Origin: Candidatus Spongiisociaceae bacterium
GTDB lineage: Bacteria > Actinomycetota > Acidimicrobiia > Spongiisociales > Spongiisociaceae
DNA: 64,000 bases
Assembly: GCA_965243165.1 (NCBI GenBank)
Contig: OZ251535.1
Coordinates: 1,602,246 to 1,666,245 of the forward strand
Direction: 5' to 3'
Shown here: positions 19,077 to 61,625 of the stretch, in pieces
Position numbering within the stretch: the first letter of the stretch is position 1
Layout of the letters: every line of letters starts with the position of its first letter
Made by a program: the position numbers and the translations under genes
Notes under the pieces: model-generated
The model's input: the letters and a program-made list of their open reading frames with translations, nothing else
What the model was told of the DNA's origin: nothing
Databases searched by the model: none

Positions 19077-19089
19077 CTATCATGGGCTG

Positions 19090-27955: not shown

Positions 27956-28421
27956 TTTTCAAGATGAACAGCCAGGGTCGGCGGAGCCCGCCTTTCCATC
28001 CGGCTGCTGAAAGTTTGTCACACCCTCCTGATATCTTGGGGCGGTACAGAAACCGCAGCCGGTCCGGATGCTGCGGTCATACAGAGGCCGCTCCGCCCGG
28101 GGCCGGGGCTCCAAGGGCGGGGCGGTCGACCTGGCTGTGCCGAGGCGGATCGGGCGCAGAGGGCCGCAACGCGCCCTCGGCGTCCGAAGACGGTGGTTCG
28201 GCGGCGGGGGAGGGGGCCCGGCGGAAGCCGGGGCGGGGGGCGGAGAACGCGAAAAACGGTGTTCTCCGTGCTCCTCGGGCTTGGTTTCGGTTTCGAGCGG
28301 GTTGAATTCCTGTCGAGCGGCAGTGGGCGTCTCGGGTCTGCCAAGTCAGCAGCGTACGGGACAGCCGATCGACTATCGGCGCTTGGATTCGGCGGGCCCA
28401 TGGAACCGCCGGCGGGGCGGG

Positions 28422-37167: not shown

Positions 37168-38526
<1,359 letters not shown>

Positions 38527-38696
38527 CGAATAACCGGCGCTGGCGAGGGGAATGGCGGTTCTCCTTGCGTAGAGGAAGTCGGGCGGCCATGCAGGTTAGC
38601 CTGCGATACTCTGGTTGCACCCTTCGCGCTCCGACGCCCCTGCTGCCGGTGCACCGGAGCGGCGGGCAATCGGGAAGGAGCGCGGGAGAAGCGCCG

Positions 38697-40439
38697 ATGG
38701 TGAGCAACTTGGAGCTGGCCGCCCTGTTCGGGGAGATGGCCGCGCTCACCAAGATCGCCGACGGCAGCGCCCAGTCCTTCCGGGCGCGCGCCTACGAGGC
38801 CGCCGCCAAGACCATCGAGGGGCTGTCCGCCAAGGCGGCGGAACTGTCTGCGGCCGAGCTGAAGAAACTGCCGGGCATCGGCGGCGCCACCGCCGCCAAG
38901 ATCCGCGAGTACGCCGATTCGGGGCGGATCGCCAAGCTGGAACAGCTGCGGGAGGAGTTCCCGCCGGACTTCCGGGCGCTGGTGAACGTCCCCGGCCTCG
39001 GTCCGAAGCGGGCGGTGCAGCTGCGGAACGAGCTGGGGGTGGGCTCCGCCGAGGAACTGGCGGCGGCCCTCGAAGCGGGGGCGGTGCGGGAGCTGGCGGG
39101 CTTCGGCGAACGGATGGAAGCCAACCTGCGGCGGGCCATGCAGCGGCTGGGCATGTCCGGCAAAGAGCGCCGCACTCCGATCCTGACCGCCATGCGCGAG
39201 GCGGAATGGCTGTTGGCCGAGGTGCGGGCGCTGCCGGGGGTGGAGGCCGCCGCCTACTGCGGGAGCCTGCGGCGTTTCCGGGACACGGTGGCCGACCTCG
39301 ACATCCTGGTGGGGACCTCCGATTCGGGGGCGGTGGCCGAGCGGCTGGTGAACCTGGGGTGGATCCGCCGGGTGATCGCCTCGGGGGGCACCAAGACCTC
39401 GGTGGTGAGCCAGTCGGGCCTCCAGGTGGACGTGCGGATGGTGCCGATGCGCCGGTGGGGGGCGGCGGTCCTGTATTTCACCGGTTCGCAGGCCCACAAC
39501 ATCCGGCTGCGCCGTCTGGCCATCCAGCGGGGGTGGACGCTCAACGAATACGCCCTGTCCGACGCCGGCGCCGGGGTGGAGATCGCGGCGCAGACCGAGG
39601 AGGAGATCTACGCGGCGCTGGGGCTGCCGTGGATTCCGCCCGCCATCCGGGAGGACCGGGGGGAGATCGAGGCGGGGCTGGGGGGCGGGCTGCCCGGCTT
39701 GGTGACGGACGGGGACCTGCGGGGCGATCTGCACGTCCACACCGACCTGTCGGGGGACGGGGACGATTCCCTGGAGGCGGTGCTGGCGGCGGCGGCGGAG
39801 ATGGGCTTGGATTACATCGCCGTTACCGACCACGCCGAGAACCTGGCCGTCAACGGAGCAAGCCGGGGGGAGATGCTGGCCCAGCGGCGGCGGATCGCTT
39901 CCCTCCAAGAGGAATATCCGGGGATGCGGATACTGCATGGAGTGGAGCTGAACATCGCTCCGGACGGCTCGCTCGACTACGACCGCGATTTCCTGATGGG
40001 ATACGACTGGTGCGTCGCCTCGGTGCACAGCCACTTCGACCTGGCAGCCGCCGAGCAGACCGAACGGCTGGCGGCGGCGGTGAGGCATCCGGCGGTGAAT
40101 GCGGTCGGCCATCTGCTGGGGCGGCGGATCGGGCGGAGGCCCGGCATCGAAGTGGACGTGGAGGCGGTGCTCGACGCCGCCGAGGCGACCGGTACGGCCA
40201 TCGAGATCAATTCCCACCTCGACCGGCTCGACGCCCCCGTGGAGGTGCTGTGGCAGGCGAGGCGCCGCCCCGGCGTCCGCTTCGTCATCTCCACCGACGC
40301 CCACCGGGTCGGCGAGCTGGCCCAGTCCAAATGGGGTGTGCTGCAGGCCCAGCGGGGATGGGTGGAAAAAGACAGAATCGCCAACACCTGGCCGGCCGAG
40401 CAGTTTCTGGACTGGGTTCGGGAGGTTCGAGGGGGATGA
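38697..40439 (+). CDS. polX: DNA polymerase/3'-5' exonuclease PolX (Pol beta-like domain + PHP domain)
   Basis: HhH motifs (LPGIGGATAAKI, VPGLGPKRAVQL). Pol X palm. C-terminal PHP motifs HVHTDLSGDG...HAEN... Confidence 0.85.
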   Translation: MVSNLELAALFGEMAALTKIADGSAQSFRARAYEAAAKTIEGLSAKAAELSAAELKKLPGIGGATAAKIREYADSGRIAKLEQLREEFPPDFRALVNVPGLGPKRAVQLRNELGVGSAEELAAALEAGAVRELAGFGERMEANLRRAMQRLGMSGKERRTPILTAMREAEWLLAEVRALPGVEAAAYCGSLRRFRDTVADLDILVGTSDSGAVAERLVNLGWIRRVIASGGTKTSVVSQSGLQVDVRMVPMRRWGAAVLYFTGSQAHNIRLRRLAIQRGWTLNEYALSDAGAGVEIAAQTEEEIYAALGLPWIPPAIREDRGEIEAGLGGGLPGLVTDGDLRGDLHVHTDLSGDGDDSLEAVLAAAAEMGLDYIAVTDHAENLAVNGASRGEMLAQRRRIASLQEEYPGMRILHGVELNIAPDGSLDYDRDFLMGYDWCVASVHSHFDLAAAEQTERLAAAVRHPAVNAVGHLLGRRIGRRPGIEVDVEAVLDAAEATGTAIEINSHLDRLDAPVEVLWQARRRPGVRFVISTDAHRVGELAQSKWGVLQAQRGWVEKDRIANTWPAEQFLDWVREVRGG

Positions 40440-40454
40440 TTCCATCCAGTCAGG

Positions 40455-41702
40455 TCAGTAGAGGTGTCCTTCGAGGCCGAGCAGCCATAGGGTGAGGATG
40501 GTGAGGGCGAGGCCGGCTGCGGCGCAGATCGTCCAGTCGATCAGGCGGGCGGCGAGTCTTCTGCCGGTTTTGGCGGGCGGGCGGGTGGTGTTGCGGTTTG
40601 GTTGGCGGGGGTGGTCTGGGGTGACGGCGGTGCGGGTGATTTGGTCGTGCCAGCCGCGTCGTTGGGTGTTGAAGAGGGGGGAGGCGGCGGTGAGGAGGAA
40701 GATGGGTATTCCGGCTAGGGGGATGAGGAGGGGGAGGTGGAGGGCGGCCCATCTGGCGGTTGTGCGGGTCCATCGGGGGGTTTGTCTGCCGGGGGTGCGG
40801 ATGGTTTGGATTCGGGTGAGGCGTTTGCCGATCGTTCGTCCGAGGGCGGCGGTTGTCAGGGTTTCGTAGAGGAGGAAGGGCGCCAGGAACAGACCGGCTG
40901 CGGCCGGGTAGGCGAGGAGGATGAAGGCCAAGAGGTCGACTCCGTTCGTATCGCTTCCGGTGTCTTCGTCGTTGCCGCCGAGGCCGGTCCGCATCAGGAG
41001 TTGTTCCAGCAGCGGGTTGAGGACTGTGATGCTCACGTCGTTTGTGGTTCCGTCTCTTCCCGCCGGGATGCCGGCGCGGATGCGGTCCAGCAGGTCCGCT
41101 TTCTTGGCGGGGGTGTCGACCACATCATGGAGTGCGACGGCAACTTCGATCTGTCCGGTTGTGATGTCTGGGGAAGACGTTATACCTGTTACCTCTTCGT
41201 AGCCGGATATGATGTCGTGAACGATCTGATGGCGTTTGGTGAGGCCTGCTTCGGTGAATCCCCGGTTTTCGATGATTCGGATGTCACGCGGGAAGGCTCG
41301 GACGGCTTCAACTGCCTCGGCGGGCGCTGTTCCGGTGAAGGATACAAACCCATTCACGCCGTCTTCGATCCAAGAACCTGTAAAGTCTTCCGGAAACTTT
41401 TCCCTGATTTGGTTGACCAAATAGCCGAACGGGCTTTGCCAGGCGTAATTCTCGATTGCTTCTTCGAGCGAGATGCCTTCCTGTTCTGCCAGAAATTCCA
41501 GGTCGCGGCAACGTTCTCCTGGAATTATTCCGGCGGCCAGCTGTTCGATTGGGTCCACTTTGGTCAGGGTGGTGGTAGTGACCAGAGTTCCGTATACGGG
41601 TGTACAGGTCCATGCGTTGCCGGCAGTCGGCATTGTGAGCAGGGATACCGCCAGCATTCCCAGCATCCACCCTGCCAGTGAGCTGCGCGTTCGGGTTGTC
41701 AT
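40455..41702 (-). CDS. Membrane protein with an N-terminal secreted domain homologous to the S1 protease pro-region, fused to a C-terminal RDD-family membrane domain (cassette A, gene 3)
   Basis: Signal peptide MTTRTRSSLAGWMLGMLAVSLLTMPTAGNAW. Residues ~50-230 align with the pro-region of protease 42889-44223 (EQEGISLEEAIENYAWQ...AFPRDIRIIENRGFTEAGL). C terminus carries RDD motifs (LGRTIGKRL...RRGWHD). The ATG overlaps the upstream gene stop (ATGA). Confidence 0.75.
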   Translation of the reverse strand: MTTRTRSSLAGWMLGMLAVSLLTMPTAGNAWTCTPVYGTLVTTTTLTKVDPIEQLAAGIIPGERCRDLEFLAEQEGISLEEAIENYAWQSPFGYLVNQIREKFPEDFTGSWIEDGVNGFVSFTGTAPAEAVEAVRAFPRDIRIIENRGFTEAGLTKRHQIVHDIISGYEEVTGITSSPDITTGQIEVAVALHDVVDTPAKKADLLDRIRAGIPAGRDGTTNDVSITVLNPLLEQLLMRTGLGGNDEDTGSDTNGVDLLAFILLAYPAAAGLFLAPFLLYETLTTAALGRTIGKRLTRIQTIRTPGRQTPRWTRTTARWAALHLPLLIPLAGIPIFLLTAASPLFNTQRRGWHDQITRTAVTPDHPRQPNRNTTRPPAKTGRRLAARLIDWTICAAAGLALTILTLWLLGLEGHLY

Positions 41703-42844
41703 GGGCCGCCTCGGTGTGCTTCGGAGGTTGGAACGACGATAGCGCCGGCGGCTTTGTCGTGCCATCCGCGCCGTTGGGAGTCGAAGAGGGGGGAGGCGGC
41801 TGTCAGGAAGAAGATGAGTATTCCGATGATGGGGAGTGCCAGGAGGGGAAGGTAGATCACAATCCATCTGATGCTGGCTCTCTTCCATCCTGGAACTCGG
41901 CCGTTGCCGATGCACACCACTCGGGTCTGGGTGAGAATTTTTCCGATCGTTTCTCCTCGAAGAGCAATCAGCGGCAACTCGTAGATGACCACCGAGGCTA
42001 AGACAGCAACGAAACCTATATGAAGTATAGATATAGCTATCCAGAGGTCGGATTCAGGTAACAGGCTCTGAACAGTAATCTGGAATGGTTCTATAAACGC
42101 AATACCTTTGTATATATCTATAAAAGTAGATCCTTCAAGTTCCAACAATCCTATCGACCATATCACAAGAGTGATCCCAGCTATTGAATATAGCAACCAG
42201 TCAATAGTTCGGGACAGGAACCGCTTATGCGTGGGAACTGAAAGAGAAACATTGTCCTGGATGGCCGGTGTTTTAGATGCTTGGGTAACAATTGTGCCCG
42301 CGATCTTGTCATGCCATCCGCGTCTTTGAGGGTCGAAGAGGGGGGATATAACTGTCAAGAGGAAAATTATTATTCCGATTATAGGAACCAGAAGAGGAAG
42401 ATATATTATCGCCCATCGCACGCTGGACATCTTCCATCCCGGAACGCGGCCGTTACTGTTATGAGTTACTTTGATTCCCATCATTATCTTCCCGATAGTC
42501 TGACCCCTGGCGGCGGTCATCGGAAGTTCATATAGAAGCGATGGAACCAGTAACAGGATTACACAGGCTAAGTGTATAGCAAAAATGGATAACCAAGGTT
42601 GAAAGTCAGGTACAGCATAAGTCTCAAACCATAATCTATAGGATTGTGAAGGAACTGAATCTCCACCTCCCAAGCCCACATAAGTTCTTGTAAAGCCGGT
42701 TACCCAGATTAGAGAGGACATCCCCCAGATCAGAGAGGACATCCAAAGCCAGATGCCTATAACAACATATAGTAACCAATCAATACATCGAGCTAATATG
42801 CGCCCTATCGATTCAGATTGATTGATACCGATAAGGCTCGCCAT
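41699..42844 (-). CDS. Tandem RDD-domain integral membrane protein (cassette A, gene 2)
   Basis: Two RDD units (GQTIGKIMMGIKV...RRGWHDKIAGT and GETIGKILTQTRV...RRGWHDKAAG) with multiple TM helices. Low GC. Confidence 0.75.
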   Translation of the reverse strand: MASLIGINQSESIGRILARCIDWLLYVVIGIWLWMSSLIWGMSSLIWVTGFTRTYVGLGGGDSVPSQSYRLWFETYAVPDFQPWLSIFAIHLACVILLLVPSLLYELPMTAARGQTIGKIMMGIKVTHNSNGRVPGWKMSSVRWAIIYLPLLVPIIGIIIFLLTVISPLFDPQRRGWHDKIAGTIVTQASKTPAIQDNVSLSVPTHKRFLSRTIDWLLYSIAGITLVIWSIGLLELEGSTFIDIYKGIAFIEPFQITVQSLLPESDLWIAISILHIGFVAVLASVVIYELPLIALRGETIGKILTQTRVVCIGNGRVPGWKRASIRWIVIYLPLLALPIIGILIFFLTAASPLFDSQRRGWHDKAAGAIVVPTSEAHRGGP

Positions 42845-42888
42845 TAGTTACTCCTTTCCTTGTGTTATTTTGTGCTTCATAATTGTGT

Positions 42889-44223
42889 TTATGAAGTAGC
42901 TACTGTCCAGCCTGGGAAGGCATCATCAATGTGATGAACCGGTGTAAAAAGATCCCGACGTTTTAAGCCAAATATCCAGTTGCCACTGTGAATACCGTAT
43001 GCAGTGGTTCCATGAAACCAAGGGCCTCCAGAATCACCTCCTCTGGCCTTTCTATTATGCATAGCAACCAGCTTTCGTCCTTCAGGATAGTATACGCTGC
43101 CCCTGTATACTCTGTCTACAGTGTAGCCGCTAGATTTCCCATATTTTCGCAACCATTGGCCTTCCATTGGTACTCCAGTAGATTCAACAAACTGATAATC
43201 GTTTGGTCCGCTGTCGTAACGAAATTCGTTCACAAGGGTATAGCCAGAAGGAACAGAATGTCTCTGAAGGTCCCCCCATTCTCCTTGATGTTCTATCCCC
43301 CAACCTAGCCGAAGATAAATAGAGCCGTCAATTAATCTTTGATTATTGCCACAGTGTCCTGCAGTAGAAATATGTCTCCTTCCACTCGTATGTTCAAGAA
43401 CAAAGCCCACTGTGCATGTGCTGAGATGCATTCCTCCTGTTACATCCTCATCTCCCCCGCCAGGAGTGGAGGTTACAATATTGAAAAGAACGTCTTTATT
43501 AGTCCCAGTACTGGCAACACTCCCGACTGGAAGGTTAGCTTGGAGAAGATCAAGCATAGATGTCTTCTCCTCAGGAGTAGATTCTGAGTTTTTTAGTACT
43601 ACTTCCACGGTTAGTAGTCCAGTTCCGATATCGTAGGTTGAGGCGGCTGTATCTATATTATCGTTGCCTATCACGCTATTATGAACTGAATCGAGACGTT
43701 GTCTAAGATCGGCTTCGGTGAAGCCCCGGTTCTCGATGATCTGCACGGCACGCGGGAAGGCCCGGATGGAACTCGCAGCACCGGCGGGCGCTGTTCCGGA
43801 GAAGGCCACCCAAGCTGTCAGATCTTCTTCGATCCGGGCTCCGGCGAAATCACCCGGATAATCTTGGCGGATTTCGTTGACCAAATAGGCGAGCGGGCCT
43901 TGCCAGGCGTACTTCTCGATCGCTTTGTCGAGTGAGATGCCTTCCTGTTCGGCCTGCCAGGTCAGCTGCTCGCGAAGCGCTTCGGATATTTCTCCCGCCG
44001 CGAACCGGGAAACCGGGTCGCTCGGGTTGCTCGGTGCCTTTTCGTCGGTTCCCCCTCCGCCGGAGGGTGCGCCGGTGCTGGGGGTTCCGAACCCGCCGTC
44101 GTCGGATCCGGGGGGTGAAACGGCCTGAACGGTCGAGGGGACGACCAGCGCCAACGCCAGCAACAGCAGGATGCCCGCCCTCGCCTTCGTGCGCCTCCGA
44201 ACTCTGCGTCTGCGGATCATCAT
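42889..44223 (-). CDS. Secreted S1-family serine protease, alpha-lytic protease/streptogrisin-like (S1E), with an N-terminal pro-region (cassette A, gene 1)
   Basis: Signal peptide, then a ~200-aa pro-region. Catalytic His in TAGHCG and Ser in GDSGGPWF. Paired Cys residues. Confidence 0.85.
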   Translation of the reverse strand: MMIRRRRVRRRTKARAGILLLLALALVVPSTVQAVSPPGSDDGGFGTPSTGAPSGGGGTDEKAPSNPSDPVSRFAAGEISEALREQLTWQAEQEGISLDKAIEKYAWQGPLAYLVNEIRQDYPGDFAGARIEEDLTAWVAFSGTAPAGAASSIRAFPRAVQIIENRGFTEADLRQRLDSVHNSVIGNDNIDTAASTYDIGTGLLTVEVVLKNSESTPEEKTSMLDLLQANLPVGSVASTGTNKDVLFNIVTSTPGGGDEDVTGGMHLSTCTVGFVLEHTSGRRHISTAGHCGNNQRLIDGSIYLRLGWGIEHQGEWGDLQRHSVPSGYTLVNEFRYDSGPNDYQFVESTGVPMEGQWLRKYGKSSGYTVDRVYRGSVYYPEGRKLVAMHNRKARGGDSGGPWFHGTTAYGIHSGNWIFGLKRRDLFTPVHHIDDAFPGWTVATS

Positions 44224-44420
44224 GAGATGCCTCCTGCCATCCTGCTTCTATTGCTTCTTCGAAGATATCACATCTAACAGGGTTCCGGAGGCTGAAACCG
44301 CATATTTCATAATTGTGTGCAATATGCAAAACCAAAGGATTGCATATTGTATACAATCTCAGCAAAACAGGTTAGCCTCACCGCTCGAGTCCGACTGATA
44401 CAGTTTATCTTCGCTGGCGA
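44224..44420 (-). promoter_or_regulatory. Low-GC promoter/leader of cassette A with a GntR-type palindromic operator; ~90% identical to 55130-55277 upstream of cassette B
   Basis: Near-dyad TGCAATATGCAA-N10-TTGCATATTGTA. The second arm also contains the perfect palindrome TTGTATACAA (GntR-like t.GT...AC.a). AT-rich -10-like hexamers. Confidence 0.5.
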
Positions 44421-44439: not shown

Positions 44440-44700
44440 GGATCAATTCCCACCTCGACCAGCTTTGACGCCCCAGTCAAAGGTGCTGCGGCGGGCGAGA
44501 TGCCGCCTCGGTGTCCGCTTCGTCATCTTCACCGAGGCCTGCCGAGTCGGTGCTCCAGACCAGTCAAAGTGGGGGTGGGCTGCAGGCAGCGGAGCAGGAT
44601 GGAAGAGACAGGATCGCCAACACCTGGACAGCCGGGCGGTTCTCGACTGGGTTCGGAAGGTCTGCCGGGGTGACCGGACGTCTCTGCGGAGTGTCGGGCG
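44440..44700 (+). pseudogene. Degenerate duplicate of the polX 3' end (~75% identical to 40185-40440)
   Basis: ORF 44429..44713 translates to ...GVRFVIFTEACRVGAPDQSKWGW...DRQHLD.RAVLDWVRKV, against PolX ...GVRFVISTDAHRVGELAQSKWGV...DRIANTWPAEQFLDWVREV. Together with the intact polX end it brackets cassette A. Confidence 0.65.
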
Positions 44701-46927: not shown

Positions 46928-47225
46928 AAGGAACCGAAGCGGTCGAGCCTGCGAAAGTTCTCCGAACATACGTACCCCTAGCCGGAAGCCCGAAAATTTG
47001 GTATACCTATTGGGCTGAAGCACAAACACCGCCGCGAGTTCTGGAGAGGGCGGCGGTCAGAGAGACGGATCCCGTTCGGTCCGGCCCCGTCGGGCCGGGG
47101 GCGGCCTTGTGCGGCCCGGCGGATTTTCGTTCAAGGAGGCGGCGGCGGGGGATGGGCCCGGGTTTGCCGGCGGGGAGGGGCCGATTTTCGCGTTCTCGAG
47201 GGCATTTGGGTTGGATTGAAGGAGC
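46928..47225 (+). repeat. Full copy of the ~300-bp non-coding repeat element; inverted partner at 61141-61470
   Basis: ~90% identity over ~290 bp to the reverse complement of 61.2-61.47 kb. Indels between copies break every reading frame. Contains the palindrome ggtatacc and GC hairpins (ccggccccgtcgggccgg). Confidence 0.7.
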
Positions 47226-47403
47226 GGACGGCGGCGTGTTTGCCTCAGCGGGTTTGCCGAAAGGAGGGTATCTATGGCCTATATCGGCAGATGTCATGTT
47301 TGAGGCGCAACGGGCGCTGGCGAGTCGGTCTATGCCTGACGGCAGGGGCGGCCGACCGCTCGCTCGAGGCTCCCGGGCAGCCAGCTGGGCCGCTCTCCAA
47401 GGG

Positions 47404-47589
47404 TCAGTCGTCTTCGGTTTCGGTCGGGGAGGGTTCCGGATCGGGGTCGGCCGGAGAAATGTGGGAGTAGTAGCCCGCTATGTAGAACACTATCTGCAGC
47501 AGGACGAACACGCCCAAGGTTATCCACGGCCACCGAACCATCAGTTCCCCGAGTTCACCGACCAGCCTAACCACCGCATTCCCCTTCAA
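47404..47589 (-). pseudogene. Duplicated 3'-end fragment of the DUF2339 gene (tandem duplicate of 47650-47835)
   Basis: The ORF ends ...SPADPDPEPSPTETEDD, against the DUF2339 C terminus ...SPVPPADPDPEPSPTETEEAA. About 170 bp of nucleotide identity, including the 3' flank. Confidence 0.6.
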
Positions 47590-47733
47590 CCTCGACTGGC
47601 ATCATCGTAGTTTACATCGTTGATTGACATCGGGAACGCAACGGGTGCCCGCGAGTCGGTCTATGCCTGACGGCAGGGGCGGCCGACCGCTCGCTCGAGG
47701 CCCCCGGGCAGCCGGCCGGGCCGTTTCCAGGGG

Positions 47734-50475
47734 TCAGGCGGCTTCTTCGGTTTCGGTCGGGGAGGGTTCCGGATCGGGGTCGGCCGGAGGGACGGGGGAG
47801 AAGTAGCCCACTATCAGCAGCAGGACGCCCACGCCCAGGAAGGACACCACCCGGGCCAGGGTTCCGGTGTTGCCGAGGTCTACCAGGAACAGCTTCACCA
47901 CCACCACTCCCATCAGGGCGGCGCCTGCGATCCATACCGGACGCCGGACGAGCCGCCCGCCGGCCACCATCGCGCCCAGCCCGGCCAGCCCCCACAGGAT
48001 CGACAGGGACGCCTGCAGCAGGGTGGAGTCGAACATGTCTCCGAATCGGAACGGCACATCGAACCAATGGTGGACGGTGCGCACCGCACTCATCGTCAAC
48101 AGCAGCATCCCGAAAGCGGCCGTCCATCCAACCCAGTTGCGCCGGACGACGGACAGTTCCCAGCCCTCGAAGGGGGCGGTCCGGCGCCGCCACAGGAAAG
48201 CCGCGGCAGCCGTCAGGACGACGGCCGCCTCCAGCGGGTTGAGCAGCGGCAGATAGACCAGCGGACGCGGATCGCCGTCGGATGTCAGCAGGAGCACCGC
48301 CGACGCCGCCGTCAGCCCCGCCAGCAGCATCCCCGCCCCGGCGGTGAGGTAGACGCGCCGATACGGGCGGAGAGGCCAGGGGATGCGGCGCCCGTTCCAC
48401 AGCGGGATGGAGGCGGCCGCCAGCGCGGCGGCGACCCCCGCCGACGCGGGCCACACCCCGTCCGCCGCCCGATCGACCAGCGCGGACGCCTCCAAGGCGG
48501 CGAGCGCTGCAACCAGCCAGAGGCCCCCTGCGTGCAGGGCGGCCGCCAGTTTCGGGAACTGGTCCTCCCGCAGCCGCAGGAACAGGTAGAACACCGCCAG
48601 CGCGGCCGGCCAGGCCGCCCATCCGTATTCGTCGAACGGATGGCCGAGCCGCTCGGAATCCTCCCAGACAACTGTTATGAGCAGCGCCGCCGCCATGGCC
48701 GGCAGGACCGCCGTTCCCAGCGCCGCCAGCCGCGGCCAGCGCAGATGAGGCGCCGCCAGCGCCGCCCCTCCCAGACAGGCGGTCGTCCACACCAGCACGG
48801 CGGCCAGTTCGGCGTAGGAGAGCTGGTTGGCGATTTCCGTCGACCCGCCCCACAGGAGCCACGCCGCCCCCCATATCATCCCCATCCAAACCGCCGTCAG
48901 GCCGGAGGGGGTTCGGTGCCGCTCCCGGTCGTACAGCCAGGCCGAGAACAGCCCGGCCGCGGCCAGGAGGGCCGACCCGGCCAGATAGGGGTTGACCACC
49001 GGGAGGGCGTCGGCCGGATAGGGCAGCTCGACCAGCAGGAACCACATGAAGCTGACCCCCGCCAAGCCTTGGAGAAAAGCGCCGCCCGCCGCCAGCAGAC
49101 GGAAACGGCGGCGCAGGCCCATCCACACCACCGCCGCTCCTTCCGCCGCCCATATCAGGGATATGTAGAAGGCGTCGAAGGCCAGCGGGACGGCCAGCGA
49201 GGCGAAGAACAGGCCCAAGCCCAAGTGGGCGTCGCTCAGCAGCCTCCGCTCCCGGAAGACCCGCCAGTGGGCGGCCAGCAGCCCGCCGTGGAGGGCGGCC
49301 AGCCCCAAGGCGCTGAAGGCCGGTCCGTATTCGGTGTGGCCGACCAGCTCGTTCTGCAACAGGAAAACGGTGAACGGAGCTCCGAAGATCAGCGGCCCGT
49401 CTACCGTCCACCGGGCGGCCGGGCTGCGCTCCCGCCCCCGGATCTCCAGAAGCAGGGGCGCCGATATGTACATGACCGCGAACAGGGCCAGGAATATCTG
49501 GGCGGAGGCCATTTGGACGGGGTCGTAGCGGAGCAGCAGCCAGTGGGCGCTCACCCCGTATGTGAAGATGAAGCCCAAGAGGCTCAGCTCCGGCCAGCCT
49601 TTGAACCAGGTGAGGGCCAGCACCGCGGCGCCGAGCACCGCCATGTAGGTGAAGAGGAGCAGATGGTTCCCGTCGTCCACCGAGATCAACACCGGCGCCA
49701 GGAACCCGCCGATGAGGCCCAGCACCGACAGGGCGCGGGAGTCCTGCACCGTTGACAGCGCTCCGGTCCACACGGTGATCGCCACCACCGCGGCTATAGC
49801 GGCGGGGCCGGGCAGCACCTCGTAGCGGATGAGCGAGGCGTACACGGTCAGATAGAGGACCGCCGACCCTCCTCCCTGCAGGCTGAGCGCGTACATCAGA
49901 TTGCGCCGCCGCACCCACAGCCCCACCCCGGTCATGGCCGCTCCGAACAGGGCGGCCGCGGCCAGCCGCATTTCCAGGGTGAGGGTGATCCAGCCCCGGT
50001 TCAAGGCGGTCTGGATCAGGAATCCCAGCCCGATCAACGACAACAGGACCCCCGCTTTCACCGGGGCGTTGCCGGCGGTGAACCAGTTCTTGACGGCCCG
50101 CGCCGGTGCGCTCAGCAGCGCGGCGAGAGGGTCCTGCCGCGGAGGGTCCTCTTCGATTCGAGCCGGGGCGGCGGCAACCGGTTCGGGGCGCGGCCCCGCC
50201 GGAGACGGACGGGCGGCGGCAACCGGCGCGGGAGCCGCCCGGGGTGCGGCGGCCGGGGGCGGCGGAGCGGGGGCGGCGGGCGGAGCCTCCTTCGCGGGCG
50301 GGGCCGGTGCGGCCGCCTCGGCTTCGGGCTTTTGGCCGGCCTCCAGCTGTTCTACCCGTTTCCGGAGGCGGGTCACCTCGGCGCTCAATCGGCTGATCCG
50401 CACGGCCATAGGGATGAGGACGGGCGCCGTCGCCGCCAAGACGAACAAGACGGGCAAGACGATGTACAAACCCAC
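47734..50475 (-). CDS. DUF2339-family large polytopic membrane protein with an N-terminal coiled coil
   Basis: 913 aa. A GTG start at 50475 follows a ggaggggct RBS. Coiled coil (RISRLSAEVTRLRKRVEQLEAG), a Pro/Ala-rich linker, then >20 TM helices. The track ORF's N terminus (MDPHNRQMGRPPPPP...) is read-through of the upstream repeat. Confidence 0.75.
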   Translation of the reverse strand: MGLYIVLPVLFVLAATAPVLIPMAVRISRLSAEVTRLRKRVEQLEAGQKPEAEAAAPAPPAKEAPPAAPAPPPPAAAPRAAPAPVAAARPSPAGPRPEPVAAAPARIEEDPPRQDPLAALLSAPARAVKNWFTAGNAPVKAGVLLSLIGLGFLIQTALNRGWITLTLEMRLAAAALFGAAMTGVGLWVRRRNLMYALSLQGGGSAVLYLTVYASLIRYEVLPGPAAIAAVVAITVWTGALSTVQDSRALSVLGLIGGFLAPVLISVDDGNHLLLFTYMAVLGAAVLALTWFKGWPELSLLGFIFTYGVSAHWLLLRYDPVQMASAQIFLALFAVMYISAPLLLEIRGRERSPAARWTVDGPLIFGAPFTVFLLQNELVGHTEYGPAFSALGLAALHGGLLAAHWRVFRERRLLSDAHLGLGLFFASLAVPLAFDAFYISLIWAAEGAAVVWMGLRRRFRLLAAGGAFLQGLAGVSFMWFLLVELPYPADALPVVNPYLAGSALLAAAGLFSAWLYDRERHRTPSGLTAVWMGMIWGAAWLLWGGSTEIANQLSYAELAAVLVWTTACLGGAALAAPHLRWPRLAALGTAVLPAMAAALLITVVWEDSERLGHPFDEYGWAAWPAALAVFYLFLRLREDQFPKLAAALHAGGLWLVAALAALEASALVDRAADGVWPASAGVAAALAAASIPLWNGRRIPWPLRPYRRVYLTAGAGMLLAGLTAASAVLLLTSDGDPRPLVYLPLLNPLEAAVVLTAAAAFLWRRRTAPFEGWELSVVRRNWVGWTAAFGMLLLTMSAVRTVHHWFDVPFRFGDMFDSTLLQASLSILWGLAGLGAMVAGGRLVRRPVWIAGAALMGVVVVKLFLVDLGNTGTLARVVSFLGVGVLLLIVGYFSPVPPADPDPEPSPTETEEAA

Positions 50476-50567
50476 AGCCCCTCCCTTCTGGGCCGATCCT
50501 AGCGAAGGAGAGTCTTCCTGTTCGGACTGTGTTCCTTCCGCCGGTCGATGCGCCGGGGTGATTCCGT

Positions 50568-51050
50568 TCAGTAGAGGTGTCCTTCGAAGCCGAGCAGCCA
50601 TAGGGTGAGGATGGTGAGGGCGAGGCCGGATGCGGTGCAGATCGTCCAGTCGATCAGGCGGGCGGCGAGCCTTCTGCCGGCTGCGGCGGGCGGGCGGGTG
50701 GTGTTTCGGCTTGGTTGGGGGTCTGGGGTTACGGCGGTGCGGGTGATTTTGTCGTGCCATCCGCGTCGTTGGGGGTCGAAGAGGGGGGAGGCGGCGGTGA
50801 GGAGGAAGATGGGTATTCCGGCCAGGGGGATGAGCAGGGGGAGGTGGAGGGCGGCCCATCTGGCGGTTGTGCGGGTCCATCTTGGGGTTTGTCCGCCGGG
50901 GGTGCGGATGGTTTGGATTCGGGTGAGGCGTTTACCGATCGTTCGTCCGAGGGCGGCGGTTGCCAGGGTTTCGTAGAGAAGGAAGGGTGCCAGGAACAGG
51001 CCGGCGGCGGCCAGGTAGACGAGGAGCAACAGCACCAAGGGGTCGACGCC
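50568..51050 (-). repeat. ~480-bp direct repeat (3' end of the pro-region-RDD fusion gene). Copies at 40455-40935 (~90% id) and a partial third copy at 51712-51845
   Basis: Nucleotide alignment of the two cassette termini. The encoded C termini (…RTIGKRLTRIQTIRTPG.QTPRWTRTTARWAALHLPLLIPLAGIPIFLLTAASPLF...LGLEGHLY) are nearly identical. The segment is high-GC, unlike the rest of the cassettes. Confidence 0.75.
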
Positions 51051-51701
51051 GCGGCCGGCATCGCTTTCACCACCCGGCACATCTGGCTCAGTTCCGTCTC
51101 CGGTGTTCATCAACATTTCGAGGCGGTGCAGGAGTGGATTCATAACGATCAGGTCAATGTCATCTATGGTTCCGTCTCTTCCGGCTGGAATTTCAGCACG
51201 GATGCGGTCTAGTATGGTTGCTTTCTTGGCGGGAGTGTCGACCGAATCGTCGAGCACGAAGTTCACCGTGAATTGTCCTGTGGCTATATCGAAGGTAGAT
51301 CCAGTTTCTATTACGCTTTCGTTGTTCCATACGATATCATGAACGATGGTGAGTCGTTCTTTGAGTTGTGCTTCGGTGTAGCCGCGGTCCTCGATGATTT
51401 GTATGTCGCGGGGAAACGCCAGAATTGTTTCTACGGCGCCGGCGGGGGCTTCTCCAGCGAAGGCGATCCAAACCGTCTGGTCGTCTTCGATCCGAGCTCC
51501 TGCAAAATCTTCTGGATATTCTTCCCGGATATCGTTGACCATCGTAGACAGTGATCCCTTTGTAAGGGTGGCAGCGGCGGCCAGAGCATCGGATACGAGT
51601 GTACTGGCCCATGCGTTGCCGGCGGTCAACGCTGCAAGTAGGAAAACCGCCAGCATTCCCAGCAACCGCCATGTCTGTGAGCTTCGCCTCCGGGTACTCA
51701 T
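50568..51701 (-). CDS. Pro-region-like domain fused to an RDD membrane domain (cassette B, gene 4). Shorter pro-like domain than its paralogs
   Basis: Signal peptide MSTRRRSSQTWRLLGMLAVFLLAALTAGNAWA. Pro-like segment (…ILAFPRDIQIIEDRGYTEAQL…). RDD C terminus. Start overlaps the upstream gene stop. Confidence 0.75.
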   Translation of the reverse strand: MSTRRRSSQTWRLLGMLAVFLLAALTAGNAWASTLVSDALAAAATLTKGSLSTMVNDIREEYPEDFAGARIEDDQTVWIAFAGEAPAGAVETILAFPRDIQIIEDRGYTEAQLKERLTIVHDIVWNNESVIETGSTFDIATGQFTVNFVLDDSVDTPAKKATILDRIRAEIPAGRDGTIDDIDLIVMNPLLHRLEMLMNTGDGTEPDVPGGESDAGRGVDPLVLLLLVYLAAAGLFLAPFLLYETLATAALGRTIGKRLTRIQTIRTPGGQTPRWTRTTARWAALHLPLLIPLAGIPIFLLTAASPLFDPQRRGWHDKITRTAVTPDPQPSRNTTRPPAAAGRRLAARLIDWTICTASGLALTILTLWLLGFEGHLY

Positions 51702-52576
51702 CGGCCGCCTCCTGTTTGCCGATTGTTCGTCCGAGGGCGGCGGCTGCCAGGGTTTCGTAGGAGGAAGAGCGTCAGGAGCAGGCTGGCGGCGGCTAAGCAG
51801 ACGAGGAGTAACAGCACCAGGGGGTCAACGCCGCGGCCGACTTCGCTTTCACCATCCGGCATACCTAGCTCGGGTCCGCCTTCGATGCGATCGACAACCT
51901 TCAGGTCGATGTCATCTATGGTTCCGTCTCTTCCCGCCGGTATTTCAGCGCGGATGCGGTTTAGTATGGTTGCTTTCTTGGCGGGGGTATCGATTGAATC
52001 ATGCAGTACGATAGTAACTTGGATCTGTCCGGTAGTGATGGAGTAAGTCGATATGTAATCTATCACCTCTTCGTAGCTGGACGCGATTCCGGAAACAATC
52101 CCGTGGCGTTTGTTGAGGGTTGCTTCGGTGAATCCCCGGTTTTCGATGATTCGGATGGGGTGTGGGAAGGCTCGGATGGCTTCAACGGCCTCGGCGGGCG
52201 CTGTTCCGGTGAAGGATACAAAACCATTCACGTCGTTCCTGATCCAAGAGCCTGTAAAGTCTTCGGGATATTTTTCCCTGATTTCGTTGACTAAATAGGA
52301 GAACGCGTCTTGCCAGGCGTACCTCTCAATGGATTCTTCGAGCGAGATGCCTTCCTGTTCTGCTATCAATTCCAGGTCTTGGCAAAGGTATCCAGAGATT
52401 ATTCCGGCGGCCAGCTGTTCAACTGGGTCGGCCTTTGTCAGGGTAGTATTGGTGTCTGGAGTGTCGGATACGGTTGTACAGGTCCATGCGTTGCCGGCGG
52501 TCGGCGCTGCGAGCAGGGAAACCGTCAGTATTCCCAGCAACCGCCATGCCAATGAACTGCGGGCTCGGGTTTTCAT
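51698..52576 (-). CDS. Pro-region-like secreted protein, a C-terminally truncated paralog of the pro-region-RDD fusions (cassette B, gene 3); likely a degenerate copy
   Basis: The N-terminal 230 aa are ~75% identical to 40455..41702. The TM region ends in the out-of-frame tail ...RNPGSRRPRTNNRQTGGGR. The alternative frame at 51712-51760 still encodes AAALGRTIGK (RDD motif), so a frameshift plus deletion is inferred. Confidence 0.6.
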   Translation of the reverse strand: MKTRARSSLAWRLLGILTVSLLAAPTAGNAWTCTTVSDTPDTNTTLTKADPVEQLAAGIISGYLCQDLELIAEQEGISLEESIERYAWQDAFSYLVNEIREKYPEDFTGSWIRNDVNGFVSFTGTAPAEAVEAIRAFPHPIRIIENRGFTEATLNKRHGIVSGIASSYEEVIDYISTYSITTGQIQVTIVLHDSIDTPAKKATILNRIRAEIPAGRDGTIDDIDLKVVDRIEGGPELGMPDGESEVGRGVDPLVLLLLVCLAAASLLLTLFLLRNPGSRRPRTNNRQTGGGR

Positions 52577-53730
52577 GAGCTGCCCCTCGACTGTTGGCGG
52601 CCTTGAAGCCCTTCGGAGGTTGGAACGACGATGGTGCCTGCGGCTTTGTCGTGCCATCCGCGCCGTTGGGGGTCGAAGAGGGGGGAGGCGGCTGTCAGAA
52701 GGAAGACCAGTATTCCGATGATGGGTAGTGCGAGGAGGGGAAGGTAGAGCACCATCCATCTTATGCTGGCTTTCTTCCATCCGGGAACTTGGCCGTTGTC
52801 GATGCATACTACTTGGGTCTTGGTGAGTATTTTTCCGATTGTTTCTCCTCGAAGAGCAGTCAGCGGCAACTCGTAGATAACTACCGAGATGAAGACAATG
52901 GTGAAGGAATTATGAATTCCAAATACAGCCAACCAGAAGTCGGATTCATATATCATCCGTCTTATACCCTCAATCTGATAAGAGATGCTCAATGGTTCTA
53001 TGGCAACCCTGCTATTGTATAGGTCTATGAAGGTTGATCCTTCGAGTTCTAGCAATCCAATTGACCATATCAGAAAGGTAACTCCAGCTATTGAATATAG
53101 CAGCCAGTCGATAGTTCGGGCCAGCAACCGTTTGTGTGCACCGGTTGGAAAGAGAAGTGATGTTCTTGATTCTTTGTCTTTACTTACTGGAGCGACGAGT
53201 GTGCCAGCGATTTTGTCGTGCCAGCCGTGTCGTTGAGAGTTGAACAGCGGTGATGCGGTTGTCAGGAGGAAAATCAGTATTCCGATTATTGGAATCAGAA
53301 GAGGAAGGTAGAGTATCGCCCATCTTATGCTGGATCTTGTCCATCCTGGAAAGTGGCCCTTATTGTTGTGGGTTACTTTGATTCCCATCAGTATCTTCCC
53401 GGCTGTTTGCCCTCTCGCGGCGATCAGCGGTAGTTCATATAGAAGAGATGGAAGTAGTAATAGTATTACACCGGCCAGATGTATAGCAAAGATAGATGTC
53501 CAGGGTTGGAGGTCAGGTATCGCATAGGTTTCGATCCATGTTACCGGAGGCGGCGGAGGGTCAGGTTCAACCTGATAAGTACTCCGTTTTGTTCCCGTCA
53601 AGAGTGCTATCCAATCTTGAGATGATAATAAAAGAGTTATGCCTGTAATAACATAGATCGTCCAATCGATGCACCGAGCTAATACGCGCCTCGTTGATTC
53701 AGATTGGTTGATCTTTATGATGCTTGCCAT
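52573..53730 (-). CDS. Tandem RDD-domain membrane protein (cassette B, gene 2), paralog of 41699..42844
   Basis: Start MASIIKINQSES, matching MASLIGINQSES in the paralog. Two RDD units (GQTAGKILMGIKV...RHGWHDKIAG and GETIGKILTKTQV...RRGWHDKAAG). Confidence 0.7.
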   Translation of the reverse strand: MASIIKINQSESTRRVLARCIDWTIYVITGITLLLSSQDWIALLTGTKRSTYQVEPDPPPPPVTWIETYAIPDLQPWTSIFAIHLAGVILLLLPSLLYELPLIAARGQTAGKILMGIKVTHNNKGHFPGWTRSSIRWAILYLPLLIPIIGILIFLLTTASPLFNSQRHGWHDKIAGTLVAPVSKDKESRTSLLFPTGAHKRLLARTIDWLLYSIAGVTFLIWSIGLLELEGSTFIDLYNSRVAIEPLSISYQIEGIRRMIYESDFWLAVFGIHNSFTIVFISVVIYELPLTALRGETIGKILTKTQVVCIDNGQVPGWKKASIRWMVLYLPLLALPIIGILVFLLTAASPLFDPQRRGWHDKAAGTIVVPTSEGLQGRQQSRGSS

Positions 53731-53779
53731 TTTCTTTTTGCCCTCCTCGTCTCCTGCTATTACCTTTATAGCCGATGGT

Positions 53780-55129
53780 TTATGAAGTAGCGACATCCCA
53801 ACCAGGAAAGGCGTCTTCAATATGATGGACCGGAGTAAAAAGGCTTCTCCTTTTACTGGCTGGACGCCCTATATCATTTTTGTAGCCAAAATGAATACCA
53901 TAGGCGGTGTCTCCCCGGAACCATGGACCCCCAGAATCTCCTCCTTGAGTTGTATGACTAAACATTGCTACTAGATGTTCTGCTATACCGGCATTAACAA
54001 CACCTCTGTAGACCCAATCTGATTTATAACCTGTGGACATTCCATAATTTAATAATACTTGACCTTCCACTGGGACTCCGGTTGACAAGATCGGCCGAGA
54101 GTGCCGCCCGCTGCTATTATAACGAATACTATTTGTCAGAGTGTGTCCTGAAGGTACGGAATGCCGTTGAAGGTCTCCCCATCGTCCTTCATGTTCGTCT
54201 TCAAAAGTCAATGTTATCCTAATATTGCCGTCCCTCAATGTCTGATTGTTGGAACAGTGGCCTGCAGTGGAGATATTCCTCTCCCCGTTTGAGTTCTCAA
54301 GAACAAACCCTGCTGTGCACCGGCTGAGATGTGTCCCGCCTCGTATGTCGGATTCAGCTCCGCCCGCTATGTCACTTACGACATTCAGAGTCACGTCGCT
54401 GGTTCCAACGTTGGCAACGCTTCCGATCGGGAGTTCGGCGCGTAGAAGATCCGACAGTGCTTTCTTCTGTGCGGGGGTGTCAGCCGAATCCTCGATTGCG
54501 ACGGTTACCTCCAACCGGCCGGTAGCGAGGTCGTAGGTCGAGACAGCGTCTTCGACCTTGTCGTTTGCCATCACGCTGTCATGAACGGCGGTGAGGCGCC
54601 GATTGAGGCCAGCTTCGGTGAAACCCCGGTTCTCGATGATTTGCACGGCGCGCGGGAAGGCGCGGATGGAGCTCGCAGCACCGGCGGGCGCCGTTCCGGA
54701 GAAGGCCACCCAGGCTGTCAGATCTTCTTCGATCCGGGCTCCGGCGAAATCATTCGGATAATCTTGGCGGATCTCGTTGACCAGATAGGCGAGGGGGCCT
54801 TGCCATGCGTACTTCTCAATCGCTTTGTCGAGTGAGATGCCTTCCTGTTCGGCCTGCCAGGTCAGCTGTTCGCGAAGGGCTTCGGAGATCTCTCCCGCCG
54901 CGAACCGGGCAACCGGGTCACTGGGGCTGCTCGGCGCCTCTTCGTTGCCTCCCCCTCCGCTGGCTGGTACACCGGCGCCGGGGCCGGGGGTTCCGAACCC
55001 GCCGTCGTCGGATCCGGGGGGTGAAGCGGCCTGAACGGCCAAGGGGAGGACCAGCGCCAGCGCCAGCAACAGCAGGATGCCCGCCCTCGCCTTCGTGCGC
55101 CTCCGAGCTCTGCGTCTGCGGATCATCAT
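53780..55129 (-). CDS. Secreted S1E (alpha-lytic/streptogrisin-like) serine protease with pro-region (cassette B, gene 1), paralog of 42889..44223
   Basis: Signal peptide. Pro-region ~90% identical to the cassette A protease. The mature domain has diverged (TAGHCSNN, GDSGGPWF). Confidence 0.85.
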   Translation of the reverse strand: MMIRRRRARRRTKARAGILLLLALALVLPLAVQAASPPGSDDGGFGTPGPGAGVPASGGGGNEEAPSSPSDPVARFAAGEISEALREQLTWQAEQEGISLDKAIEKYAWQGPLAYLVNEIRQDYPNDFAGARIEEDLTAWVAFSGTAPAGAASSIRAFPRAVQIIENRGFTEAGLNRRLTAVHDSVMANDKVEDAVSTYDLATGRLEVTVAIEDSADTPAQKKALSDLLRAELPIGSVANVGTSDVTLNVVSDIAGGAESDIRGGTHLSRCTAGFVLENSNGERNISTAGHCSNNQTLRDGNIRITLTFEDEHEGRWGDLQRHSVPSGHTLTNSIRYNSSGRHSRPILSTGVPVEGQVLLNYGMSTGYKSDWVYRGVVNAGIAEHLVAMFSHTTQGGDSGGPWFRGDTAYGIHFGYKNDIGRPASKRRSLFTPVHHIEDAFPGWDVATS

Positions 55130-55277
55130 GAGATTCCTCCTGTCATCCGGCTTCCTATTGCTTCTTCGAAGATATCACATCGAATAGGGTTCCGGAGGCT
55201 GAAACCGCCTATTTTGTAATTGTGTGCAATATGCAAAACCGGAAGATTGCATATTGTATACAATCTCAGCAAACCGG
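55130..55277 (-). promoter_or_regulatory. Promoter/operator region of cassette B, lying between the GntR gene and the protease gene
   Basis: Contains the same TGCAATATGCAA / TTGCATATTGTATACAA dyads as the cassette A leader. Low GC. Confidence 0.5.
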
Positions 55278-61092: not shown

Positions 61093-61140
61093 GACCCTGT
61101 CACCGGGCCGCAATCCTAGATTGGCGGCTCCAAGGTTTAC

Positions 61141-61470
61141 CCCCGACAAGAACCTCGTGCAATCATGATGGCTCGAAGTTCGATTCCAATTCCAACCCAA
61201 ACGCCCCCAAGTCCGCGAAAATCGGCCCCTCCCCGCCGGCAAACCCGGGCCCATCCCCCGCCGCCGCCTCCTTGAACGAAAATCCGCCGGGCCGTACGAG
61301 GCCGCCTCCGGCCCGACGGGGCCGGAACGAACGGAATGCCGTTTCTGACCGCCGCCCTCTCCAGAACTCGCGGCGGTGTTTGTGCTTCAGCCCAATAGGT
61401 ATACCAAAATTCGGGGCTTCCGTATAGAGGTATGTTCGGAGAAGATTTCGCGGACTCGACCGCTTCGATC
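61141..61470 (-). repeat. Inverted copy of the ~300-bp non-coding repeat element, in the divergent plsB-like/dtd intergenic region
   Basis: Reverse-complement alignment with 46928-47225 and with window bases 1-50. Confidence 0.7.
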
Positions 61471-61625
61471 CTCCGGCCTCGCTCGGAGGTGCCCCAAATC
61501 CAGGGAGGGCAGGCTCGGAAGCGGCGTTCATGACGGCCTCTGCCGCACGCCTCGCCCCAACCGCTCATCTCGGCAGCGAGCGGCAATGCCTTGCCTTACG
61601 GGCGGGCGAGGGTAGGTTTGACCTC

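Follow-up and report, generated by a model that had tools for sequence, protein, structure and literature searches.

A 64,000-nucleotide stretch of contig OZ251535.1 from a Candidatus Spongiisociaceae bacterium (positions 1,602,246 to 1,666,245), here called the window, contains four copies of a noncoding repeat unit. The copies are named A, B, C, and D, and their coordinates are positions of the window. They probably belong to a family of mobile units that has not been described before and is restricted to one lineage, and every unit would be a small-RNA gene complete in itself. The unit is about 260 to 340 bp long, and the predicted RNA measures about 165 to 185 nt. In order, the unit consists of an A-rich block, a sigma70-like promoter, an AAGCAC or AACACC start, the hairpins P1 and P2, a G-rich stretch, a GGGCCC hairpin, and a terminal UUUUCGCG.

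A reading of the sequence alone (the sequence-only reading) had described a repeat of about 90% identity in at least three copies, with an inverted pair 14 kb apart. This description held. By blastn, A (46935 to 47215, plus strand) and B (61467 to 61191, minus strand) are 90.1% identical over 283 nt (E = 6e-106), and a repeat search placed inverted arms about 14 kb from each other, one of 147 nt (93%) and one of 92 nt (92%). The window has exactly two occurrences of a 22-mer taken from their core, against an expectation of 0. In addition to A, B, and C, a hidden Markov model of the family recovered a fourth, divergent core copy, D (about 28010 to 28262, plus strand), which had been missed by eye and has its parts in the same order.

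Distribution of the family

Contigs of relatives were reached via homologues of the plsB-like protein encoded next to B. The exact 22-mer of the A/B core had no match in genome or metagenome contig collections, which do not hold the source genome or its closest kin. In the 95% relative (locus L001), the element lies upstream of plsB and the contig begins inside it. When A and B were compared with the relatives' contigs by blastn, weak matches elsewhere in these contigs proved to be diverged copies. These have a clear promoter of the sigma70 type, TTGGCT-17-TATAGT in L004 and TTGACT-17-TATCAA in L002, and both have a compensatory first hairpin and the shared 3' block. The window copies are not debris of a local duplication.

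The family was scanned with the pattern GGCGGYGGGGG-NN-GGGCCC-N(20-32)-TTTTCGCG (N25 in the short form of the family motif), with one genome per species. At least 77 loci were found in species genomes and, among the matches listed, all were in metagenome-assembled genomes (MAGs) labelled Acidimicrobiia or Candidatus Spongiisociaceae/Spongiisocius, or in unclassified "bacterium" bins. Judging by the MAG names, the carriers appear to be sponge symbionts. Pattern matches per genome ranged from 1 to 3 in several bins through at least 9 in OY282370.1 to at least 55 in OZ241842.1, a 3.0-Mb chromosome, and the family's copy number is put at 3 to more than 55 units in a genome. The 241 million JGI metagenome records gave only 5 matches, 3 of which duplicated genome matches. 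Two units can also stand in tandem, 445 bp apart in L073.

Two side observations were made at these loci. In L005, a unit (123 to 484, minus strand) lies directly upstream of, and co-oriented with, an RNase P RNA gene (583 to 815, minus strand; RF00010, 266 bits). Many OZ-type units (those of the OZ241842.1 subfamily) are followed by a module of about 130 bp bounded by CGGATAGGG...CCCTATCCG (L073, 6620 to 7230, minus strand). At its ends, this module looks like the end of an IS5-like element next to it, whose transposase begins MRALEPEV..., and it is probably a second, unrelated miniature inverted-repeat transposable element (MITE).

Promoter and 3' end

The upstream block of about 60 nt is A-rich. 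Its first bases are (G)TCGCGAAA, whereas the OZ-type has CACGGAATGAC-A7 there; CGCGAAA marks the block start across the unit consensus. The promoter consensus is of the sigma70/SigA type: TTGACx, a 17- to 18-nt spacer, and TATAGT, GATAAT, or CATATT. It reads TTGAC(T/C)-17-GATAAT or TATTAA in the OZ-type, TTGnnn-17-TATAGT in the L004-type, and TTGACT-18-CA(T/C)ATT in the RHO-type. A conserved AAGCAC or AACACC follows at a fixed position about 11 nt downstream. A strict promoter rule was passed by 38 of 90 copies versus 7 of 450 shuffled sequences, and a promoter scan independently found two promoters where they should lie, TTGATA-17-TATAGT for L014 and TTGACT-18-CATATT for L018.

The C-rich, anti-Shine-Dalgarno-like 5' arm of P1 has the form A(C/U)CNCC..., with CACC(U/G)CC paired to GG(A/C)GGU, after which comes G(A/G)UCAU; the 3' arm ends in the G(A/G)U of this motif, and CAU is next. 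In two subfamilies the 5' arm reads CACCUCC, which is the 16S anti-Shine-Dalgarno sequence. P1 is followed by the long irregular hairpin P2, a short variable linker, an unpaired G-rich GGUGG-N-GGCGGYGGGGG, and NN. The 3' end is formed by a GGGCCC hairpin ending at UUUUCGCG, and U4-6 followed by CGCG is present in all copies. Lineage-specific tails come after it, namely, GGGATAGGGGCTTGACC repeats in the OZ-type and a separate tail in the window lineage, carried by B and C.

Such a layout suggests that the unit is transcribed. The RNA would act in trans via its exposed C-rich 5' end, its G-rich linker, or both, either by base pairing or by binding a protein or the ribosome, while the DNA unit would be moved by an enzyme supplied in trans.

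Predicted RNA structure and constraint

Structures computed with RNAalifold for separate subfamilies were dominated by long-range pairings between G-rich and C-rich segments, which we distrust, and were rejected. Since neither these nor a global alignment was informative, the named helices were tested directly. In 13 sequences of the window and L004 types, 95.6% of P1 cells are paired, and double-sided changes (U-A/C-G; G-C/A-U/G-U; C-G/A-U) occur in three of the seven pairs. Covariation scores 0.304, compared with 0.155 ± 0.033 after shuffling (0 of 500 as high), and sliding the partner by one column reduced pairing to 19 to 28%. As an example, the P1 arms of copy D are ACCGCAGC/GCUGCGGU, compared with ACCGCCGC/GCGGCGGU in A and B.

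The same helix was recovered across all subfamilies. Among 30 distinct arm pairs, 174 of 240 cells are paired versus 151 ± 5 when partners are permuted (0 of 2,000 as high), and four pair types occur at one position. For P2, native partners pair at -21.7 kcal/mol and cross-subfamily partners at -17.8 kcal/mol (p = 6e-4, 20 clusters). The inner stem of P3 changes from CCCGC/GCGGG to CCGGC/GCCGG between subfamilies. An advantage of sense over antisense folding was discounted as a signal because the sense strand is G-rich.

Constraint is also visible within one genome. Across 225 columns of 46 aligned OZ-type copies from OZ241842.1, the mean majority frequency is 0.95, and near-random columns are found at 184 to 188 (a 5-nt linker before GGUGG) and at 194 and 227 (in the G-rich region). 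A recent burst from a single master copy would not produce this combination of conserved and near-random columns. The pattern may reflect either purifying selection on each copy with saturated free sites or recombination scars at those sites.

Genomic position and mobility

Copies are confined to intergenic DNA and prefer the 3' ends of genes, and their neighbors are functionally unrelated. With crude GC3-based gene calls, 79 copies had genes on both sides: 26 lay between convergent and 9 between divergent genes (p = 0.006), and in tandem pairs 29 were co-oriented with the genes and 15 opposed (p = 0.05). Among all copies with a called downstream gene, that gene was co-oriented in 42 cases and opposed in 44. 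Because genes are avoided, convergent ends are favored, and no co-orientation bias exists, a cis-acting leader function is unlikely. The distribution fits an independent unit for which gene 3' ends are either a tolerated location or a target.

In low-copy genomes, the unit occupies orthologous sites in several MAGs. The spacer between dtd and plsB is filled, with the unit pointing to plsB, in the window, L001 (95%), and L088 (90%). In L087 (87%), it contains the 5' half of a unit that points the other way, and the junction differs, being displaced by about 15 bp. No unit is present there in L089 (88%), in L002 and L003 (77%), or in L004 (67%), and the spacers of L002/L003 and L004 are short. 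The three states seen among close relatives (filled, filled in reverse at another junction, and empty) point to mobility of the unit. Three short-read contigs begin inside the unit, as expected of a repeat. In L087 and L089, the native sequence of the empty site is TCCGTTCCTCCGG, and the 5' flank of B (61468 to 61490, minus strand; CCGGAGGATCGAAGCGG) is similar to its reverse complement, a likeness that could reflect a target preference or a small inversion at insertion.

The ends show an inverted symmetry of 7 to 13 bp, with (G)TC(C)GCGAAA(A) at the 5' side and TTTTCGC(G)GAC at the 3' side, and CGCGAAA(A)...TTTTCGCG occurs in several subfamilies. The best case is copy B (AGTCCGCGAAATC / GATTTTCGCGGACT), and the RHO-type reads GTCGCGAAAA / TTTTCGCGAC. 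In the OZ-type, the largest subfamily, the symmetry lies inside the conserved boundary. It could equally represent an UP-like A-tract and a U-tract instead of a terminal inverted repeat (TIR).

IS110 insertions

In L059 (5600 to 6905 and 816 to 2120), L078, and L028 (3520 to 3760), representing two different genomes, an element of about 1.3 kb splits the unit into 5' and 3' parts. It encodes a 348-amino-acid DEDD/IS110 transposase (Pfam PF01548 and PF02371). The insertion point, CAGGT^GGTGGCGG, lies in the G-rich linker, and the near-random columns of the OZ-type alignment adjoin it. The left end of the inserted element contains CGCCACCTG, which is complementary to the target, as expected for the target loop of a bridge RNA. 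REP-type repeats are known targets of IS110 elements, which recognize them through a bridge RNA (PMC11208160).

The 3' module was considered as a REP-like target that stands alone. This was rejected, as every match has either the 5' module or an IS110 insertion. Identity with REP/BIME elements was likewise rejected, although no search for RAYT was made; the unit is about 10 times longer and asymmetric, running from a promoter to a U-tract.

Copies in the window

The copies and their parts are as follows.
46932 to 47215, plus strand: copy A, whole unit as common to B; it starts 8 nt past the TGA of a pseudouridine-synthase gene, with the 3' end of the DUF2339 gene ahead of it.
46951 to 47017, plus strand: upstream block of A, with GCGAAAG (46951 to 46957), CCGAACA (46962 to 46968), and the region homologous to the family promoter, degenerate here.
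Within 46951 to 47017, plus strand: promoter-homologous positions of A, with TAGCCG at -35 and TATACC at -10, the latter inside the palindrome GGTATACC (47000 to 47007).
47018 to 47062, plus strand: 5' motif and hairpin P1 of A, with AAGCAC (47018 to 47023), arms ACCGCCGC (47028 to 47035) and GCGGCGGT (47050 to 47057), and then a CAG linker.
47063 to 47132, plus strand: middle domain (P2 region) of A, GC-rich irregular hairpins, with A/B differences in loops.
47135 to 47196, plus strand: 3' module of A, with the G-rich linker GGAGGCGGCGGCGGGGG (47135 to 47151), the GGGCCC hairpin (47154 to 47183), and TTTTCGCG (47185 to 47192) plus TTCT.
61128 to 61468, minus strand: copy B, whole unit with 3' tail, between dtd (start at about 61623, plus strand) and the plsB-like gene (ATG at 61092, minus strand), pointing to plsB.
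61214 to 61387, minus strand: RNA-like core of B, with AAGCAC (61387 to 61382), P1, P2, the G-rich linker and GGGCCC (61271 to 61247), and TTTTCGCG (61221 to 61214).
61128 to 61213, minus strand: lineage-specific 3' tail of B, GGGTTGG..ATCGAACTTCGA..GATTGCACGAGGTTCTTGTC..CCTTGGAG, common to C, L001, and L088 and not in A.
1 to 72, plus strand: copy C, of which the window start leaves just the tail module, about 130 to 150 nt upstream of a lipoprotein gene (start 201 or 219, end 1436).
28010 to 28262, plus strand: copy D, a divergent subfamily member after a NifU-like gene (stop at 27955), with a TGTCAC promoter-spacer motif.
28052 to 28059 and 28070 to 28077, plus strand: P1 arms of D, ACCGCAGC and GCTGCGGT, followed by CAT.
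28192 to 28210 and 28212 to 28219, plus strand: 3' module of D, G-rich linker and GGGGGCCC; its tail AGAACGCGAAAAAC (28244 to 28257) is the family tail in reverse complement.

All window copies are intergenic, with the flanking genes that the sequence-only reading had described; B lies between divergent genes, whereas the gene ahead of A, like that ahead of D, is in opposing orientation and presents its 3' end. A and B share identical blocks of 65 and 80 nt, their promoter-homologous region is more divergent, and their differences within the RNA-like part fall in predicted loops.

The limits given earlier for B (61141 to 61470) fall short at the 3' side, as the copy extends to about 61128 with a tail of about 85 nt that A does not have. 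The 3' fragment noted at positions 1 to 55 matches the tail of B only (3 to 49 versus 61189 to 61141; 84%, E = 4e-8) and has no overlap with A. What is called copy C is probably the terminal part of a unit that the window edge truncates. The tail module was sought in all loci and in the rest of the window and was found otherwise only in L001 and L088. In B, the tail takes the place of the sequence that natively precedes the TAGGAT -10 element of plsB. In L001 (85 to 225), the unit upstream of plsB has an extra insertion of about 130 nt within the tail; the tail itself is modular.

The hexamer positions read TAGCCG...TATACC in A and TATACG...TATACC in B, and A, B, and L087 share AAATTTGGTATACCTAT(T/A)GGGCTGAA at the promoter position. 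The ggtatacc palindrome pointed out in the sequence-only reading is present there, at the -10 position of homologues, and is specific to the lineage of A, B, and L087; it is not a family feature. Because recognizable promoter hexamers are missing in A, B, and D, expression of these three copies is uncertain as judged from their sequences. Loss of the canonical hexamers may mean weak expression, read-through from upstream genes, or a factor that binds the GGTATACC palindrome.

A coding function was rejected, as the sequence-only reading had supposed. No open reading frame (ORF) is conserved, and the indels differ between copies. A Shine-Dalgarno-like AAGGAGG-N12-AUG (AUG at 47152 in A and 61254 in B, in frame with plsB in B) was rejected because the AUG is not conserved: this position is CAG in the 95% relative L001 and CCG, CAG, or other triplets in the OZ-type, L012, and other subfamilies.

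Known RNAs were also sought, a check that the sequence-only reading had proposed. Rfam 15, whose coverage includes 6S, Ms1, CcsR, HEARO, raiA, and ribozymes, gave no match in the window at the gathering threshold and none in 18 related loci spanning all subfamilies. At E <= 10, both A and B gave only chance matches (CcsR1, M23, and small nucleolar RNAs). For CcsR1, the window gave a single match, which lies inside the rluD-like coding sequence and is due to chance (E = 0.93). A retron noncoding RNA was rejected as well: the adjoining genes encode a pseudouridine synthase, a DUF2339 protein, Dtd, a plsB-like protein, and a NifU-like protein, with no reverse transcriptase among them, and the inverted symmetry lies outside the predicted transcript.

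Other repeats and islands in the window

Directly downstream of A, the 3' end of the DUF2339 gene contains a tandem duplication (47306 to 47481 and 47637 to 47814; 331-bp spacing, 92 to 93%). A larger direct duplication, cassettes A and B (40450 to 44370 and 50560 to 55275), consists of blocks 78 to 94% identical about 10.1 to 10.9 kb apart. The cassettes have a G+C content of 43 to 57% against a background of about 69% and contain three to four minus-strand ORFs; cassette B stands beside the GntR gene also in L001 (95%). Cassette A is flanked by 94-bp direct repeats (40243 to 40336 and 44481 to 44574; 80%), the second being a degraded duplicate. The first is the 3' end of a 640-amino-acid ORF (38523 to 40445), putatively PHP/PolX-like by eye. 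Such repeats are the signature of an island integrated into a gene 3' end. Two further low-G+C islands (19000 to 24000 and 12000 to 14000; 40 to 53% versus about 69%), the first with a 1,483-amino-acid ORF (19090 to 23541), were probably acquired horizontally.

Evaluation of the small-RNA gene reading

Several results weigh against a family of mobile small-RNA genes. Transcription is predicted from sequence features, and A, B, and D fail the promoter rule, with L087 also lacking recognizable hexamers; the promoter scan of A and B came back empty. A consensus terminator scan found nothing at the 3' module, the U-run is just 4 to 6 nt long, and in some subfamilies the stem is not directly before it. 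Because the search pattern itself included the G-rich linker, GGGCCC, and TTTTCGCG, the invariance of the 3' motifs among matches is partly circular. The folding energy of the whole element is no better than that of shuffled sequences (z = +0.8 and -0.8), and RNAalifold on a 37-sequence cross-subfamily MAFFT alignment returned six trivial pairs, because the subfamilies align poorly. Hairpin covariation would be expected equally of a single-stranded-DNA transposition intermediate; RNA is favored because the promoter and the U-tract are on one strand only.

The crude gene calls behind the orientation statistics count on the same side. As for mobility, the exact unit ends could not be defined. 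A target-site duplication (TSD) was recognizable neither at 43 left ends nor between filled and empty dtd-plsB sites, where the flanks are too diverged for base-level resolution. No transposase candidate was seen next to any copy, although no systematic search for a cognate insertion sequence (IS) was made; nearby IS110 and IS5-like elements, seen in passing and likewise without such a search, do not share the unit ends.

A more ambitious version, which we regard as unlikely, treats the unit as a "mobile RNA gene" that spreads through sponge-type Acidimicrobiia genomes because of its RNA, with every copy kept intact by selection. The RNA would then either guide a recombinase encoded in trans, or serve as its scaffold, or else be an abundant regulator or decoy. 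In the case of a decoy, the anti-Shine-Dalgarno mimic 5' CACCUCC together with the G-rich segment might titrate ribosomes, an RNA-binding protein, or IS110 bridge RNAs.

It is just as doubtful that the unit is a purely selfish, nonautonomous DNA transposon, i.e., a classical MITE whose blocks are transposase-binding or DNA-hairpin sites, whose promoter- and terminator-like features are incidental or ease tolerance, and whose RNA has no function. The high and very unequal copy number, the polymorphism of insertion and orientation, the assembly breaks at the element, the inverted symmetry of the ends, and a gene-end location typical of tolerated insertions are all as such a transposon would have them. 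However, the helices, promoter hexamers, and spacing are kept with compensatory changes across genera and old paralogues, whereas MITE interiors normally drift. The inverted symmetry spans just 7 to 13 bp and is not at the outermost conserved boundary of the largest subfamily, neither a TSD nor a related transposase adjoining a copy was seen, and low-copy genomes hold the unit at orthologous sites, as they would a gene. Of the MITE-like element proposed in the sequence-only reading, a short, noncoding, interspersed, and insertion-polymorphic repeat in which assemblies break thus remains; long TIRs, a TSD, and a matching transposase were not found.

Much less probable is a guide or scaffold RNA of a trans-supplied, RNA-directed recombination system, in which the unit would be related to IS110 bridge-RNA or IS200/605 omega-RNA elements but have no ORF, and its RNA would direct the destination of the unit. 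A promoter-driven two-hairpin layout of about 170 to 180 nt recalls the IS621 bridge RNA (PMC11208160). Long TIRs and a visible TSD are missing, as in IS110 elements, short near-random segments stand within a unit that is 95% conserved, and IS110 transposases occur in the same genomes. On the other hand, the unit has no sequence similarity to the IS110 left end in L059, no linked recombinase gene, and no Rfam match, and its hypervariable segments have no demonstrated match to flanking or target DNA.

A cis-acting leader, i.e., a riboswitch or attenuator in the 5' untranslated region of the downstream gene (plsB for B and the lipoprotein gene for C), is more improbable still. B and C do lie upstream of co-oriented genes, and a promoter, a structured segment, and a terminator-like end make up an attenuator layout. 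Yet the even split of downstream orientation (42 versus 44), the 26 copies between convergent genes, and the placement of A and D against the 3' end of an opposing gene do not suit a leader. Moreover, the genes beside the copies have no function in common, close relatives lack the unit at the plsB site, and Rfam gave no riboswitch match. The sequence-only reading had offered a family of small-RNA or leader elements; the small-RNA half is now the best supported, by the promoter, the compensatory helices, and the U-tract end in homologues, and the leader half is not supported.

The least credible proposal, a programmed switch or hotspot that inverts the 14-kb segment, has only the A/B inverted pair in its favor, with perfect blocks of 65 and 80 nt that are long enough for homologous recombination and make such an event physically possible, whereas the unit occurs in dozens of places without a paired arrangement, the dtd-[B]-plsB order agrees with the ancestral arrangement, since dtd and plsB are neighbors in relatives whether or not the element is there, and no invertase adjoins A or B. 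The inverted pair would instead be a by-product of two insertions.

Significance and comparison with known systems

If the family of mobile small-RNA genes is confirmed, it would be an undescribed RNA family absent from Rfam. In the genomes of some uncultured symbionts, it makes up nearly 1% of the chromosome. The family combines gene-like conservation (promoter, covarying helices, and invariant single-stranded motifs) with transposon-like copy bursts and insertion polymorphism. It would provide a handle on posttranscriptional regulation or genome dynamics in an unculturable lineage and a test case for the spread of small-RNA genes. It would also account for breaks in MAG assemblies and serve as a natural, conserved landing pad for IS110 bridge-recombinase elements. 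The A/B pair would then be two insertions of a genome-wide element and not a local regulatory device.

By the features tested, the unit belongs to none of the Correia/BOX/ERIC, Qrr/csRNA/CcsR, or REP groups. Correia/NEMIS elements of Neisseria, pneumococcal BOX and RUP, and enterobacterial ERIC/IRU are short, noncoding, multicopy intergenic repeats, often at gene ends, that are capable of forming stable RNA hairpins. BOX is modular, Correia elements can carry promoter and terminator activity, and copy number varies between related genomes. The unit resembles Correia, BOX, RUP, and ERIC in being short, noncoding, intergenic, hairpin forming, modular, and variable in copy number between relatives. 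It differs from Correia, BOX, RUP, and ERIC in its complete cassette of promoter, RNA, and U-tract and in helices that covary across genera, and from Correia or RUP in having neither long TIRs nor a TA duplication. It has no sequence relation to any of these four and is confined to Spongiisociales-type Acidimicrobiia.

Multicopy small RNAs such as Qrr1-5, the streptococcal csRNAs, Listeria LhrC1-5, and the Rhodobacter CcsR or "cuckoo" RNAs (with CCUCCUCCC loops) also have their own promoter, a Rho-independent-like end, and a length of 100 to 200 nt. As in the unit, paralogues keep the structure while loops drift, and C-rich, anti-Shine-Dalgarno-like 5' motifs are exposed. The unit differs from them in reaching at least 55 copies per genome versus 2 to 9, in its mobility, and in lacking a conserved neighbor gene.

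Like the REP/BIME elements targeted by IS110 members (IS621 and ISPpu9/10), the unit is a repeated intergenic landing site of IS110-family elements. However, REPs are 20- to 40-bp palindromes without promoters that are linked to RAYTs, whereas the unit has about 260 to 340 bp and a gene-like layout. With the IS110 bridge RNA and the IS200/605 omega RNA, it shares a promoter-driven structured RNA of about 150 to 250 nt on mobile DNA without classical TIRs or TSDs. Unlike these, it has no attached recombinase or nuclease gene and no sequence or Rfam similarity to them, and it is the target of an IS110 element, not its left end.

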